Shown here: positions 44,309-61,846 of the stretch, in pieces | Layout of the letters: each line of letters begins with the position of its first letter | Numbering within the stretch: position 1 is the stretch's first letter | Assembly: GCA_023920165.1 (NCBI GenBank) | Contig: CP089281.1 | Span: 2,046,001 to 2,110,000, forward strand | Reading direction: 5' to 3' | Origin: Curvularia clavata | Lineage: Eukaryota | DNA length: 64,000 bases | The notes under the pieces: generated by a model | The model's database searches: none | What the model was told of the DNA's origin: nothing | What the model saw: the letters and a program-made list of their open reading frames with translations, nothing else | Program-made: the position numbers and the translations under genes

Positions 44309-46023
44309 CTATACCTTCTCTATACGAACTTCTGTATCCTTCTCTGTAATTGATAGAGCTCTAGGTATACCACTAGCTCTATTCTCATGGATGTGTTGTT
44401 CAGCTTGCCTCCGCCATGTGTACGCGAGGCCTTTGCGAGTGAACAGAATGTCCATCTCTTCTAGGGAGAATCCCTTTGTCTCAGGAACCAATAGCCATGA
44501 GAAGACAAGCCCGAAGATGACAGAGGAGCCAAATAGAAAAAATGTCCCAGACTTGATATCCTTCATCATGTATGGTGTGGAATACACAATAATGAATTGA
44601 CCCAACCACTGGGCGCAGGTTGTGAAAACAAGACACACGGATCTGATGCCCATAGGGAAAACCTCGGCACTGAACAATGTTAGTATCTATCATCTCAAAG
44701 ACGAGTCACACATACCAGAAGATCCAAGGGATGCCATTCCAGGACATGGCATAGAAGACCGAAAAGATGTAAATCATGGCAATTGCGGCATATCCGGCTG
44801 GAGTCTTCCCGCTGCCAGTTGCAATATGTTCAAATGATCCGGAGATGTGTGTATAGCCGCCAATATAGAACAGTGCAATAGAAGCTCCAGAAGATCCGAT
44901 GAGCAGAGAAAGACGGCGACCGAGTTTATCGATTCCCCAAATCATGAAAATGGCTGTCGCGCTTGCTTTGACAATGCCGAAAATACCCGTCGCGAGTAGG
45001 CCCACACTGGTGCCCGTGAACCCAATCGCTCCAAAGATTGATGGCGAGAAGTAGTTGAGTGCGTTGATGCCAGACATATTTTGAATGAACATGAGGGCTA
45101 TTCCAAGCAACAGTCGGACGCGATTTTGTGGTAGCGCTATTTCGCGGAGCTTGGCCACGAACCCTTTTTTGGCTCCCTGTAAAGACTCCTCCTCTATCTG
45201 AGTAAGAACAGTATTGACCTCCCAAGTGAGATATTCGTGACCCTCTGGGAGCCCTCGAAGGCGCTGGAGCACTTTTCTGGCTTCATCTACACGGTTGGCG
45301 TTCAAAAGCCAGCGAGGTGATTCTGGTTGAAAAAACATGCATATGACGAGCAACGAGCCTGGGATGAGCTGCAGTGCAAATGGAATGTGCCATTGCGCAT
45401 CCGATTTCGGCGATATATGAATGTTGACGCCGTAGTTGACCCAAAATCCAAAGATTTGGAAGAATTGTAGGAAGATCTCGAAGATTCCAATCAGACGACC
45501 GCGAATGGCAGGTGGACAGGATTCCGAAATATACACTGGAACAATCATCGAGGAAGCCCCTACAGCAAGCCCTTCGGAACGTTAGCAATGCGCATACAAC
45601 AGAACAAATGACCAGCTTACCGGTCAAAGCACGCCCGCCATAGATCAATCCGACCTTGCCCGTCGAAACTAGCTGCAGGACTGCGCCAATGTTGAAGATC
45701 GCACCACAGATCATCAGCGGCCACCGCCTGCCAATTCTCTCCGTGACGAAGTAGCATAAGATGACTCCGAAGAAGCAGCCGGCCTGGAACGTACTGACAA
45801 TGTTCGCTTTCAACGCCGCCAGCTCAGCTTGATTTGTCGAATTGAGATGGAAACGATTCTTGAATGAAGGGAGGGACATTGTGCCACCAATAAACGCAGA
45901 GTCATAACCAAACATGGCTGAACCCATGGCGGCAGACACTGCCAGCGCATAAATTCGCCAGTTATAAACTTCGCGAGGGGCAGGATTGGAGGAATCATCT
46001 CTAGGGGCAGAAAAGAGCTTCAT
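44309..46023 (-). CDS. qutD: MFS quinate permease (QutD/Qa-Y type), 3 exons
   Basis: APREVYNWRIY, GYDSAFIGG, PPAIRGRL, PESPRWL, GINALNYFSP, VPETKG; introns 45620..45572 and 44715..44670; cluster context. Confidence 0.88.
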
Positions 46024-46217
46024 CTTGCTTGACAAGCAAAGATGCTAAGATGGAACCAGGGGAGACTGTTAGGTTTTCGGAAGGAAGATTGATATTCTCT
46101 TGCCCCTTAATGTACCCCAGGATCGAGCCACTAGCTTGGGTGCCCAAGCCAAGGTTTGCGGGGAAGCCGATGAAGCCTCAGGATAAGGAGCCGTGCGTTG
46201 TGGGGGTGGCTTGAACC

Positions 46218-46235
46218 CGGTACAAGTATTTCCCG
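46218..46235. promoter_or_regulatory. CGG-N12-CCG putative activator site (permease / dehydrogenase-1 divergent promoter)
   Basis: CGGtacaagtatttcCCG. Confidence 0.55.
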
Positions 46236-46351
46236 CTCAGCTTGGGAGACATTTTGCATATGGTATGTCCTGACAACGCGCCTACGCTGCGATTTTGTTG
46301 GTATTCCATTCAATTCACGACTTATGAAGCCTAACCCCGATTAAGCACACC

Positions 46352-59321: not shown

Positions 59322-59422
59322 GGCTGTGAAGCTCTGGTGTGTTCTTGTTCATGTTTACATGGATGCGTGCCTAGGTGTGTGGATTGGGCTAATAGTCTAC
59401 CCCTCAGACTTCCCCAGCCACC

Positions 59423-59440
59423 CGGCTAAGTCCTTAGCCG
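59423..59440. promoter_or_regulatory. Palindromic activator site between repressor and activator genes
   Basis: CGGCTAAG-TC-CTTAGCCG: 8-bp perfect arms, CGG-N12-CCG spacing, GGnTAAnnnnTTAnCC core. Confidence 0.7.
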
Positions 59441-59603
59441 AAAACCTTGCACCCACTAACTTCGTGGTGAATGTGGGCGCGCTAAGAGTGCGGGGGAAAA
59501 CCTGGGGAAGACATGTGCCCTCATGCAAGCGTATTGTGATGTTTCCTTATTGCGATCTTTACTAGATTATCCCTTGTTAGCTGAAACGGACTTACAAGCC
59601 CAG

Positions 59604-61846
59604 ATGACAAACGATAAGGGAAAGAAACGTGTCGAAGATGACAATGGCGATGTGCACGAACCCCTGTCGCGAGCAAAGCGGGTACGCGTCTCCCAGGCTT
59701 GTAATGAGTGTCGCAAGAAGAAGGAACGATGCGATGGTGTCCAACCGCGATGCGGGCCCTGCTCGAGCCTCAATAGGACCTGCTGCTTCGACGCGCAACC
59801 GCGGAGGCGCGGCCTGCCCACCGGTTACGTTCGCGCGGTGGAGGTCCTTCTCGGCCTCATGCTCCATTCGATCGACGGCATCGAGCACTGCGCAACATCC
59901 ATCTTACGCGGAGAAACGAGCCTTCCAGCTTGGAACAGGGAACCGCCATCGTCCTCGCCGGTCAACAGTCTGGCTGATTCATGGCGCCGCAGCGGGACCA
60001 TGAAGGAACTCGAGCGGTTGCTTGCCGGTGTCGACCCAGGTGATGAATGTGAGCTTTCAACTAGAGATCTGTATGAAAAGCTGGAAGATGCTTTCATGAA
60101 CAGACTTGTTGTAGACAAAAACTGTTACACCCGCATCCAGCTCCCCTCACCTCATCGAACCACCTCGCCTTCTGTTTCCGAACAACTTGCACCCGATATG
60201 GTTCCAAACACCCCAAGTCCCATGCTCCCAGTTGCACCTCCGTCACCGCCTGTTCCCTTGCTTCGAGACCACAATGAGCCAATGAGCCTTCCTCATGACT
60301 GGTCTCATCTGCTAGAGCGATATTTCACAGATACGCACACATGGTTTCCGGTTGCGCCCAAACACGATCTTCTCCGCCAGGCGTTCTCCTTAGCCAACAG
60401 CAGTTCCGTGATAGAGGGCCAGGGTTGCGTGGTCTCAGATGGCGACCGAGCAGCAGTGTTTGCCACACTCGCATATGCATGCTATCGCGACGCTTTATCG
60501 GTCAATGGCACTCCAGAGCAATTTGGGGATTCACTCAACCCTTCGGAAGAAGCACAGCAGGAACCATCATCATTCAACCTCTCTAAAAGATTGCAGAGCG
60601 AGGCTTCGTCCTTTTTGGCCAAAGCCAAAGAGCGGAGTAACTATGACTCCGGTCATGTTCAAGCTTTACTTGTTCTTACCATACTCCAAATCGACCAGGG
60701 CCTCTTGAAACAGGCCTGGATCACGATTGGTCAAGCGGTATACGTAGCAGTTATCCTGAATATCATACCACCTTCGCAACGGTCGAGCCATGTCATGATT
60801 GACGACAAGCTGCGACGTCTGTTTCTTGGAATATATATCCTCGAAACCCTGATCGCCTATACTTTAGAACGACGACCGTACCTCCAAAAATCTGATCTTG
60901 CAAAGATCGGCCCGCTACCAGTTGAGAGCATTGAGGAGTGGGAAGCTTGGAGACCTTTTGATACACAAGACTCGTCCACGAGGAAAAGGACGCATACTCC
61001 TGGGCGTTCATTAAGTACCTTCAACACATTTCTGGACCTGGTCACGCTACTTAACAACCAAGCACATGGCTTATCCAGCCTCTCAGAAACATTGCGACAT
61101 TTTCAATCATGGAGGACAATTCAACCTCAATCTCGTCGCAACGCTATCGCGACTCTTGACGCAGTCAGTATAGACACACCGCCTCAGATTTTGAATATAA
61201 CATTGGCTTCGCTCAGCATCGACGCTATGTTGCAGATAAAATATGCTCTACCATCCGCTATACCCGCTTCTGCACACCAATCTCTGCAAACTATCGTAAG
61301 GCACCGAAGCCTTGTGAAGAATTCCCAAGCCTGCCCTCTAATGGCAGTTTATCTCTCTATGATAGGAAGCCATATGGATATGCATGAAAAGCCTGACGCT
61401 CTGCCCACAGCCCAACAACAAGCCGCCTCCACGGACCGGTTTACTCGGCCAACAAACAGTGAGAAATCATTAGATTATCTCCAATTTCCCACACCCGCGA
61501 GCTGTACGTTTCCAGCACAGCCTTTGCTCCCAAATACTAGTAAGTCATCAACATCTCAGCGTTTGGCTCCCTCGATATTGATTATTCGAGCAACCGCCAT
61601 TCTGCAAAGATTTTGAGATGTTGTAAATCAGTCACTAAATAGTCATGTTTCAGATGAGAGCCTATTCGATAGTCTTGCCTTCCTTGATACTGCCGATTGG
61701 TGAGTATAAAACGTTTTAGTCTCTTGCCAGCAAAATCCCTGATTGTATCCAGTTCGCATCAATCAGGACGGTTTCTTGAGAATCTAGGCATTTCTATTGA
61801 GGCTACTCCTTTTGATATCGAAGATCTTTTCACTCGACAAGGTTAG
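59604..61846 (+). CDS. qutA: Zn(II)2Cys6 quinate pathway activator (QutA/Qa-1F type)
   Basis: RVRVSQACNECRKKKERCDGVQPRCGPC..C..RRRGLPTGYVR; YFTDTHTWFPV; EEWEAW. Predicted introns 61540..61653 and 61700..61752 restore an acidic tail (ESLFDSLAFLDTAD..FLENLG). Divergent from the repressor. Confidence 0.85.

Follow-up and report, generated by a model that had tools for sequence, protein, structure and literature searches.

The question raised by positions 44309-61846 of a 64,000-nucleotide stretch of the Curvularia clavata genome (contig CP089281.1 of assembly GCA_023920165.1; hereafter the window) was whether the genes found there form a quinate utilization cluster enlarged by extra enzymes or a system of another kind. 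The original prediction, made from the letters alone, had described them as an expanded quinate cluster with a self-contained downstream route. Our results suggested another answer. With a probability of roughly 0.55, the locus represents, at full length and in transcribed form, a second, paralogous family of quinate-utilization-like clusters and not the canonical qut/qa cluster. By analogy of architecture, this family would include the fourth AROM-like activator-repressor module of Aspergillus niger (NRRL3_07600-07605) and the second quinate utilization-like cluster of Aspergillus terreus.

Gene models were built from stop-to-stop pieces of open reading frames (ORFs) marked by Pfam domains and from spliced RNA contigs. 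They gave 11 genes at 44309-61846, exactly the number and the coordinates that had been proposed. The outer limits were the stop codon of a permease at 44309 and that of a QutA-like activator at 61846. The permease was a quinate-permease-like transporter of the major facilitator superfamily (MFS; 44309-46023, minus strand, 539 amino acids, coding segments 46023-45620, 45570-44716 and 44669-44309), and Sugar_tr was detected in three of its ORF pieces. Three genes encoded shikimate dehydrogenase (SDH)-like proteins, namely SDH1 (46352-47329, plus strand, 325 amino acids in one exon, Shikimate_dh_N 6.5e-21), SDH2 (50551-51492, minus strand, 313 amino acids, Shikimate_dh_N 8e-19) and SDH3 (55351-56286, minus strand, 311 amino acids, with Shikimate_dh_N, Shikimate_DH and SDH_C). 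In the case of solved structures, the best matches of all three were SDH domains of fungal AROM proteins. SDH3 was the nearest of the three (3e-47) and SDH1 matched at 3e-33, and these searches did not single out a QutB equivalent. The qutC-like 3-dehydroshikimate dehydratase-like protein (47847-48863, plus strand, 338 amino acids) carried an AP_endonuc_2 TIM barrel (1e-27). Its sole solved-structure match was the N-terminal barrel of 5hmq (6e-18), which we take to be the QuiC1 dehydroshikimate dehydratase. The catabolic 3-dehydroquinase (54544-54993, minus strand, 149 amino acids, DHquinase_II 6.8e-60) matched type II enzymes among solved structures (3kip, 1.4e-54). A permease, an SDH-family dehydrogenase, a type II dehydroquinase and a dehydroshikimate dehydratase are linked at the locus, which is the combination that marks a canonical qut/qa cluster.

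Extra genes were indeed interleaved with these qut-like genes, as had been claimed: a PEP2-like gene, a maleylacetate reductase (MAR), an intradiol dioxygenase and two added SDH-like genes. The claim that no qutG/qa-x-like gene is present was also upheld. An inositol-monophosphatase family match was found in none of 69 scans of ORF pieces across the window, in which a few stretches were scanned twice. Because there was no family match and the intergenic gaps within the cluster, at most 500 bp, are too small for such a gene, it was concluded that the cluster lacks one. One could still hold, along the lines of the original prediction, that the organism has a single canonical quinate cluster and that the locus is this cluster, grown by accretion of further genes. 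All canonical functions are there (permease, dehydrogenase, dehydroquinase, dehydratase, activator and repressor), and the repressor has the complete QutR domain set. However, the absence of qutG does not fit, and the regulators gave a different picture.

The regulator pair consisted of a QutR-like, AROM-derived repressor (56795-59321, minus strand, 825 amino acids, coding segments 59321-57042 and 56992-56795) and a divergent QutA-like Zn2Cys6 activator (59523-61846, plus strand, 718 amino acids, coding segments 59523-61539, 61654-61698 and 61752-61846, with Zn_clus and Fungal_trans). The repressor carried SKI, DHquinase_I, Shikimate_dh_N, Shikimate_DH and SDH_C, the last within its RNA-supported final exon (3.7e-12). 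A word-indexed search with this protein gave 28 proteins at E <= 1e-10. They were metagenome proteins of 72-94% identity, Periconia digitata at 70%, one more protein at 53%, and Sordariomycetes (Colletotrichum, Fusarium, Neonectria and Dactylonectria) at 41-45%. Periconia digitata was the sole named member of the Pleosporales among the 28 matches, which held no protein of Alternaria, Bipolaris, Pyrenophora or Parastagonospora. The full HMMER search returned 2,623 representatives at E <= 1e-10. A FastTree phylogeny was calculated for 151 proteins, comprising the window repressor and proteins of 650-960 amino acids, with 27 shorter or longer ones left out. The window repressor fell in a clade of 38 rows (clade A) with a support of 100. 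Its named members were Periconia digitata, Verruconis gallopava, Diaporthe australafricana, six Fusarium, Neonectria, Dactylonectria and Colletotrichum tofieldiae.

Another clade, of 30 rows and distinct from this one, contained the 'Quinate repressor protein' of Alternaria tenuissima together with proteins of Aspergillus varians, Purpureocillium ('QutR'), Cryomyces, Fusarium torreyae, Parascedosporium and Lineolata. The Alternaria tenuissima protein was 37% identical to the window repressor. A search with this Alternaria-type repressor gave 268 proteins at E <= 1e-20, and its named orthologs, at 52-89% identity, were spread across the Pleosporales, including Bipolaris, Pyrenophora, Parastagonospora nodorum and Periconia macrospinosa. 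The window repressor is of the rarer of the two types. Both Pleosporales and Fusarium were present in both clades. The tree and the searches suggested that the window regulators probably belong to a lineage paralogous to the QutR-named one, and are thus unlikely to be orthologs of QutR/QA-1S. The description as an expanded quinate cluster was not sustained at this point, and one enlarged canonical cluster is very unlikely. That reading has to place the repressor apart from the type found in nearly all named Pleosporales, and it must accommodate Fusarium and Pleosporales in both clades. In addition, the architecture fits the second cluster of A. terreus, a species that has a canonical quinate cluster as well (PMC10832562). 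As a separate observation, Neocucurbitaria, Ophiobolus, Pyrenochaeta and Phaeosphaeria each had two Alternaria-type repressors, of about 62-68% and 52-55% identity. Since two such repressors occur per genome in several Pleosporales, the repressor family has been duplicated further within the order.

The preferred reading, a second paralogous family, was compared with what is on record in Aspergillus. In A. terreus, ATEG_07672-07676 are described as a second cluster resembling the one for quinate utilization (PMC10832562). Table S5 of PMC10832562 gives its content as an AROM-like SDH, an NTF2 superfamily protein and qutE-, qutB-, qutC-, qutA- and qutR-like genes, and the expression on gallate versus acetate as log2 fold changes of 0.6 to 5.8 with 0.6 to 27.5 transcripts per million (TPM). 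In the case of A. niger, the order of NRRL3_07600-07605 is SDH-like, NTF2, SDH-like, dehydroshikimate dehydratase (DSD) paralog, transcription factor and repressor (PMC12610400). The function of the module NRRL3_07604/07605 is stated to be unknown (PMC12610400, 2025; PMC10512348, 2021). In these two papers NRRL3_07603 is the DSD paralog and NRRL3_07601 a homolog of the Agdc1-like NRRL3_06002, and according to the annotation in Supplementary Table 3 of PMC12610400, NRRL3_07600 and 07602 carry an SDH domain and 07601 carries an NTF2 domain. The genes flanking the six are unrelated (PMC12610400). Neither of the two A. niger papers joins the genes of the fourth module into a pathway. The window likewise holds at least two SDH-like genes, an NTF2/SnoaL homolog of Agdc1, a DSD paralog and the regulator pair. 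With regard to the claim of an undescribed system, the full architecture was not found in the literature, which agreed with it; the core is already on record in A. terreus and A. niger, uncharacterised. We found no paper that joins dehydroshikimate dehydratase and maleylacetate reductase in fungi, and the wording of a second quinate-type cluster was found only in PMC10832562 and PMC12610400. Beside the fourth module lies NRRL3_07606, a hypothetical gene whose level climbs from 356 to 16,566 TPM with quinic acid, with no such increase in a deletant of qutX, the gene of the A. niger quinate repressor QutR (PMC12610400). This strong response to quinate was read as independent of QutX.

Linkage of the extra genes to this type of regulator pair was then found to recur in other fungi. 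A metagenome scan with the repressor gave 90 pattern matches and one confirmed locus, a contig of 20,966 bp (L001) of which 18,621 bp were examined. The repressor there was 75% identical to that of the window, SDH2 82%, the reductase 78%, the activator 60% and SDH3 73%. SDH2 adjoined MAR, the activator was divergent from the repressor and SDH3 adjoined the repressor. Six of 18 window query pieces matched L001, where SDH1 met only paralogs. The other 12, covering the permease, dehydratase, PEP2-like gene, dioxygenase, dehydroquinase and flanks, had no match in the 18,621 bp. L001 ends 326 bp past SDH2, and ribosomal-protein and actin-family genes lie on the other side. The positions of the PEP2-like gene and a clade A repressor could be compared in four named genomes. 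In Verruconis, PEP2-like KIW04198.1 adjoins repressor KIW04199.1, and in Neonectria punicea the two genes (QQX98_009787 and QQX98_009785) are two tags apart. In Periconia digitata they share one 4.99-Mb contig at a distance of 144 accession numbers, and in Fusarium vanettenii, for the one copy looked up, they are on different scaffolds. Four more pairs of PEP2-like gene and repressor are probably present on shared contigs of 27028, 93885, 59259 and 28233 bp.

Recurrent linkage to the regulator pair was observed in this way for the PEP2-type gene and the extra SDH-like genes, and for MAR in one relative. The co-conservation of the extra genes that had been anticipated was thus found for at least the PEP2-like gene, SDH-like 2 and MAR (L001, Verruconis and Neonectria), and it failed for the dioxygenase in the part of L001 examined. 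In a tree of 123 PEP2-like proteins, the Pleosporales group of the window was nested among Diaporthe, Seiridium and Xylaria with a support of 99, and in the repressor tree the nearest group outside that of the window also contained Diaporthe. Both trees put the Pleosporales copies beside Diaporthales/Xylariales. Since the two trees are congruent, the two genes seem to have a common history, in which transfer between classes may possibly have taken part.

A shared promoter element gave further evidence for one regulon. Palindromic 3- and 4-mers with gaps of 0-12 were screened over the eight 5' regions of the cluster, and CGG-N12-CCG stood out in five of them. The type site of this element is the palindrome CGGCTAAGTCCTTAGCCG at 59423-59440, within the repressor/activator divergent promoter, and L001 retains it in the corresponding spot (CGGCTAAGTCTTTGGCCG, position 6180). 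Further sites are located at 46218-46235 in the divergent promoter of the permease and SDH1, at 47576-47593 upstream of the dehydratase-like gene, at 50076-50093 and 50111-50128 upstream of the PEP2-like gene, and at 55133-55150 upstream of the dehydroquinase gene. In the whole window there were eight exact sites versus 6.7 expected, and six of the eight fell within the 2,958 bp of cluster promoters. In dinucleotide shuffles of these promoters the count averaged 0.32 and never exceeded 3, and none of 2000 reached six. The binomial chance of six in eight was 2.5e-7, a value not corrected for the several thousand dyads that had been screened. Other spacings of 0-20 between CGG and CCG gave 0-2 sites in the cluster promoters. 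The divergent promoter of MAR and the dioxygenase carries a variant dyad, CGCTTAAGTATTTACCCG, at 53093-53110, which lies within a conserved block when the upstream region of MAR is aligned with L001 (site at 1907). The SDH2 promoter carries CGGAACATGACTTAAGCG, and no convincing dyad site was found in that of SDH3. For comparison, we take the QA-1F site to be GG.TAA-N4-TTA.CC (GGRTAARYRYTTATCC).

Other motif searches contributed little. Plain enrichment of 6-8-mers in the eight promoters gave nothing above shuffles. Among patterns of the QA-1F type or derived from it, GGATAANNNNTTATCC at up to three mismatches had 24 scattered matches and was discarded, and CGG-N12-CCG with one mismatch was rejected as noise (199 matches versus 177 expected). 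GGCTAANNNNTTAGCC at up to two mismatches gave five matches versus 2.2 expected, a number reached by 8 of 100 shuffles, which is weak alone. A composite dyad pattern had nine matches, eight of them in the cluster, a count that is not independent, the pattern having been designed after the sites were seen. The grouping of the 11 genes exceeds chance, as the associations recur in other fungi and the common promoter dyad is strongly enriched.

Transcription of the locus was observed in RNA contigs from four sequencing runs, one of them a root metatranscriptome. We concluded that the contigs derive from RNA because they have clean GT..AG or CT..AC joints. In the root metatranscriptome, 22 of 24 contigs were at least 99% alike. 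Spliced contigs covered the permease (introns 44670-44715 and 45571-45619, and 44223-44281 past the stop), the PEP2-like gene (49736-49807, in all four runs), the repressor (56993-57041) and the activator (61540-61653 and 61699-61751, GT..AG). Unspliced contigs covered the dehydratase (47732-48824) and SDH2, the latter in all four runs, and part of SDH3 was also covered. Cover was thin or missing over the reductase, dioxygenase, dehydroquinase and SDH1, and these gaps carry no evidential weight. Two side observations were made. Activator contigs run past the stop (61847-62500) with a further GT..AG intron at 62156-62206, which could be a long spliced 3' untranslated region or an overlapping downstream transcript. 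One root-metatranscriptome contig has an extra T behind 54880 at a depth of 3.4, either a dehydroquinase frameshift in that strain or an assembly error.

The PEP2-like protein of the AGDC1/PPP2 family (49162-49935, minus strand, 233 amino acids, coding segments 49935-49808 and 49735-49162, SnoaL_4) has the SnoaL fold and matched the solved structures of PPP2 (7jmr, 1.4e-40) and AGDC1 (6w54, 3.8e-38). A search gave 548 relatives at E <= 1e-10, with a protein of Curvularia clavata as top match at 99% identity. The PEP2 subfamily is strongly conserved, at 64-82% identity across fungal classes, and no characterisation of it was found in the literature. Active-site residues were read from the alignment and from exon 1 against those named in PMC7862292. 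Trp35, Arg39, Asp40, Trp61, His86 and Arg87 of AGDC1 were all kept, so the His86-Asp40 dyad, the Trp35/Trp61 clamp and Arg39 of the AGDC1/PPP2 decarboxylases are present. Like PPP2, which prefers protocatechuate, the protein has Val at the Tyr146 position, and the Val148 position of AGDC1 is His, likewise across the subfamily.

PEP2 was first described as pathogenicity-associated, and the Fusarium vanettenii protein belongs to the subfamily of the window. Together with the transcripts in a root metatranscriptome and the silence of the A. niger counterpart in carbon-source tests, this could point to a non-catabolic role, in which endogenous or plant shikimate-pathway intermediates are diverted to catechol- or pyrogallol-type products for detoxification, signalling or precursors. 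However, the regulator pair is of a type known for catabolic regulons, and the cluster has a transporter of the quinate-permease kind and a ring-fission/reductase pair. We regard this role as the most doubtful of the readings considered here.

The MAR (51856-52935, minus strand, 359 amino acids, Fe-ADH and ADH_Fe_C) is transcribed divergently from the dioxygenase and showed full-length similarity to solved maleylacetate reductases (3hl0 5.8e-108, 3w5s 4.8e-107). The dioxygenase (53138-54335, plus strand, 327 amino acids, modelled as 53138-53177, 53340-54009 and 54062-54335, with Dioxygenase_N and Dioxygenase_C) was of the hydroxyquinol type. It matched 8r2v at 4.7e-63, 8r2w at 7.9e-59, 1tmx at 8.1e-52 and PnpC at 1.5e-49, whereas the match to catechol 1,2-dioxygenase 1dlm was far weaker (1.7e-21). 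A gapless alignment to 1tmx kept Y, Y and H-x-H, presumably the iron ligands (two Tyr and two His). Behind the start ATG 53138 lies a first intron with canonical ends (53178-53339, GTAATT...ATAG, 162 nt). A start at ATG 53291 with an in-frame TGA at codon 4 and a 33-nt intron were both rejected in favour of it. The last junction was set by homology as ...LIT|ALY....

Based on these results, the following mechanism may be proposed. A QutR-like protein would restrain the QutA-like activator for as long as no hydroaromatic or phenolic inducer is bound, and the activator, once released, would switch the genes on via the QA-1F-like CGG-N12-CCG dyad. The permease would take up a quinate/shikimate-like acid, which the SDH paralogs and the type II dehydroquinase would convert to 3-dehydroshikimate. 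The dehydratase would aromatise this to protocatechuate, or an SDH paralog would oxidise it to gallate; such dehydrogenation of dehydroshikimate by SDH is known in plants and E. coli. The PEP2-type enzyme would decarboxylate either acid in a step that needs no oxygen, with catechol or pyrogallol as the product. In the lineage of the window, the dioxygenase and MAR may have been recruited beside the cluster for ring fission and reduction to an oxoadipate. By analogy with A. niger, the true inducer is probably not quinate itself.

A more specific and quite unlikely version is an oxygenase-sparing route, which is on no pathway chart. In this route, the acid would pass through 3-dehydroshikimate to gallate by an SDH paralog, to pyrogallol by a K+-independent PEP2-type enzyme, to 2-hydroxymuconate by the dioxygenase and to 2-oxoadipate by the MAR homolog acting on the keto tautomer. 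It keeps some probability because pyrogallol is the sole trihydroxybenzene within reach of the cluster's own enzymes. If it is true, the PEP2 subfamily would gain a function, as would the orphan fourth AROM-like activator-repressor module of Pezizomycotina. It would also fill the step after 2-hydroxymuconate in the yeast Blastobotrys, whose enzyme is reported as unknown (PMC9204233).

Several points weigh against membership in a second quinate-like family with one pathway. In the case of the repressor tree, 'canonical' for the Alternaria-type clade rests on database names and distribution, and the characterised A. nidulans QutR and Neurospora QA-1S are not among its 151 proteins. The orthology of the window regulators with those of the Aspergillus fourth module would likewise follow from architecture and not from sequence comparison. 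Induction by quinate, expected of an expanded quinate cluster, was not seen in the A. niger counterpart, where NRRL3_07600-07605 stay at or below 2.2 TPM on fructose and quinate alike and also when qutX is deleted (PMC12610400). The A. niger DSD paralog is reported as silent on protocatechuate too, and the second cluster of A. terreus as weakly expressed on gallate (PMC10832562). The A. niger data thus disfavour quinate and protocatechuate as inducers. Exact CGG-N12-CCG sites were missing from the promoters of SDH2, SDH3 and MAR/dioxygenase. The Glu88 position of AGDC1 is Cys in the PEP2-like protein (motif HRCH versus HREC), and among 166 relatives it was Cys in 139, Ile in 14, Val in 9 and Glu in none, the stretch being missing in four; this set includes the original Fusarium vanettenii PEP2. 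Glu88 is a K+ ligand of AGDC1 and the E88A mutant is inactive (PMC7862292). The alignment suggested that the PEP2-like protein is a predicted decarboxylase of a subfamily lacking Glu88, not a plain AGDC1.

The dioxygenase accounted for the remaining points. It was not in the examined part of L001, and neither it nor the reductase is in the counterpart clusters of A. niger and A. terreus as published. The sole boundaries that give its LIT|ALY junction are ATATGT...AAG at 54010-54061, an AT..AG intron. The nearest GT, four bases downstream, leads to a frameshift and a stop after ten codons, and no RNA contig of the four runs spans this intron. The donor looks like GTATGT with the first base changed. 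This could reflect an altered splice donor, a mistake in the assembly or an AT-AG intron of the rare kind, and the gene may accordingly be spliced, misread or dead. By chemical reasoning, hydroxyquinol is beyond the reach of the cluster's enzymes when they start from quinate or shikimate. The cluster alone reaches catechol or pyrogallol because decarboxylation leaves H at C1 and ring oxygens at C3, C4 and C5. No cluster enzyme adds oxygen para to the diol, which leaves a gap between the dioxygenase and the upper pathway. The self-contained downstream route was accordingly not supported. Either an unlinked monooxygenase may feed the dioxygenase, as PhyA does in A. niger, or the dioxygenase may take pyrogallol or catechol and the reductase act on the product.

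These points also bear on whether two units lie side by side, a qut-like/PEP2 regulon and an independent hydroxyquinol pair of dioxygenase and MAR, instead of one pathway. The hydroxyquinol would then be made elsewhere, for example by an unlinked flavin monooxygenase such as A. niger PhyA, which is known to convert protocatechuate to hydroxyquinol (PMC12388069). The hydroxyquinol type of the dioxygenase, a typical MAR, the lack of a hydroxyquinol-forming cluster enzyme, the Aspergillus clusters without the pair and the inexact dyad between the two genes are all as two units would predict. However, MAR is still beside SDH2 and the regulators in L001 despite rearrangement, the variant dyad lies in a conserved block upstream of MAR, and the pair sits in the middle of the cluster and not at its edge. 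We therefore consider two units somewhat unlikely and retain membership in the second family, with a single, partly conjectural pathway, as the preferred reading.

Under the preferred reading, the cluster core recurs in Dothideomycetes, Sordariomycetes and Eurotiomycetes, and the window is the fullest version of the second-cluster type among those compared, with its own permease, dehydroquinase, dioxygenase and reductase. An orphan regulon would gain a testable pathway, from a hydroaromatic acid to dehydroshikimate, protocatechuate or gallate, non-oxidative decarboxylation and ring fission. Decarboxylases that work without a cofactor, and the catechol, pyrogallol and muconate that derive from dehydroshikimate, attract practical interest in the field of bio-based aromatics (PMC7862292).

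The flanks were also inspected. A beta-lactamase-family serine hydrolase with a signal-peptide-like start (41716-43722, plus strand) flanks the cluster on one side and an alpha/beta hydrolase (62927-63982, plus strand) on the other. Both are conceivable as esterases releasing hydroaromatic or phenolic acids, and no CGG-N12-CCG dyad was found upstream of either. An intact-looking DDE_1/Tc5-type transposase ORF (12121-13854, minus strand, 578 amino acids) and a second copy broken into pieces (30814-31599, minus strand) were present. Transposons thus seem to have visited the region, as would suit an accessory cluster of patchy distribution. SnoaL-like ORFs at 25591-26157 (plus strand) and 26721-27302 (minus strand) and a multi-exon FAD_binding_3 monooxygenase at 28453-29916 (plus strand) possibly form a separate small cluster about 14 kb upstream. 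This monooxygenase was rejected as the missing hydroxylase, being about 14 kb off and having a promoter without the dyad. A degenerate DDE transposase and C2H2, GH92, further Zn2Cys6 and beta-lactamase-family genes lie between it and the cluster.

Finally, the locus was compared with known systems. The Aspergillus fourth module and second cluster have in common with it a pair of SDH-like genes, an NTF2/SnoaL gene homologous to Agdc1, the DSD paralog and the divergent activator and repressor, and that of A. terreus also a qutE-like gene. Present at the locus and missing from both are a permease, the dioxygenase and MAR genes and one more SDH-like gene; the A. niger module also lacks a dehydroquinase. 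The repressor of the A. niger module is reported without a detectable DHquinase_I domain (PMC10512348), whereas that of the window has one.

The qut cluster of A. nidulans and the qa cluster of N. crassa resemble the locus in the divergent Zn2Cys6 activator and AROM-derived repressor and in the MFS permease, SDH-family dehydrogenase, type II dehydroquinase and dehydroshikimate dehydratase (PMC12610400). The differences are that the window has three SDH-family genes instead of one, adds a PEP2-type gene, a dioxygenase and a reductase, lacks qutG/qa-x and qutH, has its repressor in another clade (in a tree from which the characterised QutR and QA-1S are absent), and has an Aspergillus counterpart that is reported as not induced by quinate. 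The dyad has a layout comparable to the QA-1F site but C, not a purine, at the third position. This C could keep the two quinate-like regulons apart, and CGG-N12-CCG with its GGCTAA half-site is a candidate operator that could separate them.

PEP2 of the pea-pathogenicity PEP cluster of Fusarium vanettenii belongs to the same subfamily (68% identity, 233 amino acids, HRCH motif). It lies on another scaffold than the Fusarium clade A repressor, in a gene context that we assume to differ from that of the window. In the case of the hydroxyquinol variant of the 3-oxoadipate pathway, hydroxyquinol 1,2-dioxygenase and MAR are both present with strong solved-structure matches, whereas a hydroxyquinol-forming monooxygenase is missing from the cluster. 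The Blastobotrys Agdc1p/Acdo1p route converts gallate to pyrogallol and protocatechuate to catechol before intradiol cleavage, and Acdo1p cleaves catechol, pyrogallol and hydroxyquinol (PMC9204233). It likewise joins a cofactor-free decarboxylase family of the SnoaL fold to an intradiol dioxygenase. The window differs from it in having a protein of the PEP2 subfamily without Glu88, a dioxygenase of the hydroxyquinol and not the catechol type, and genes clustered with those for hydroaromatic acids and with a reductase.

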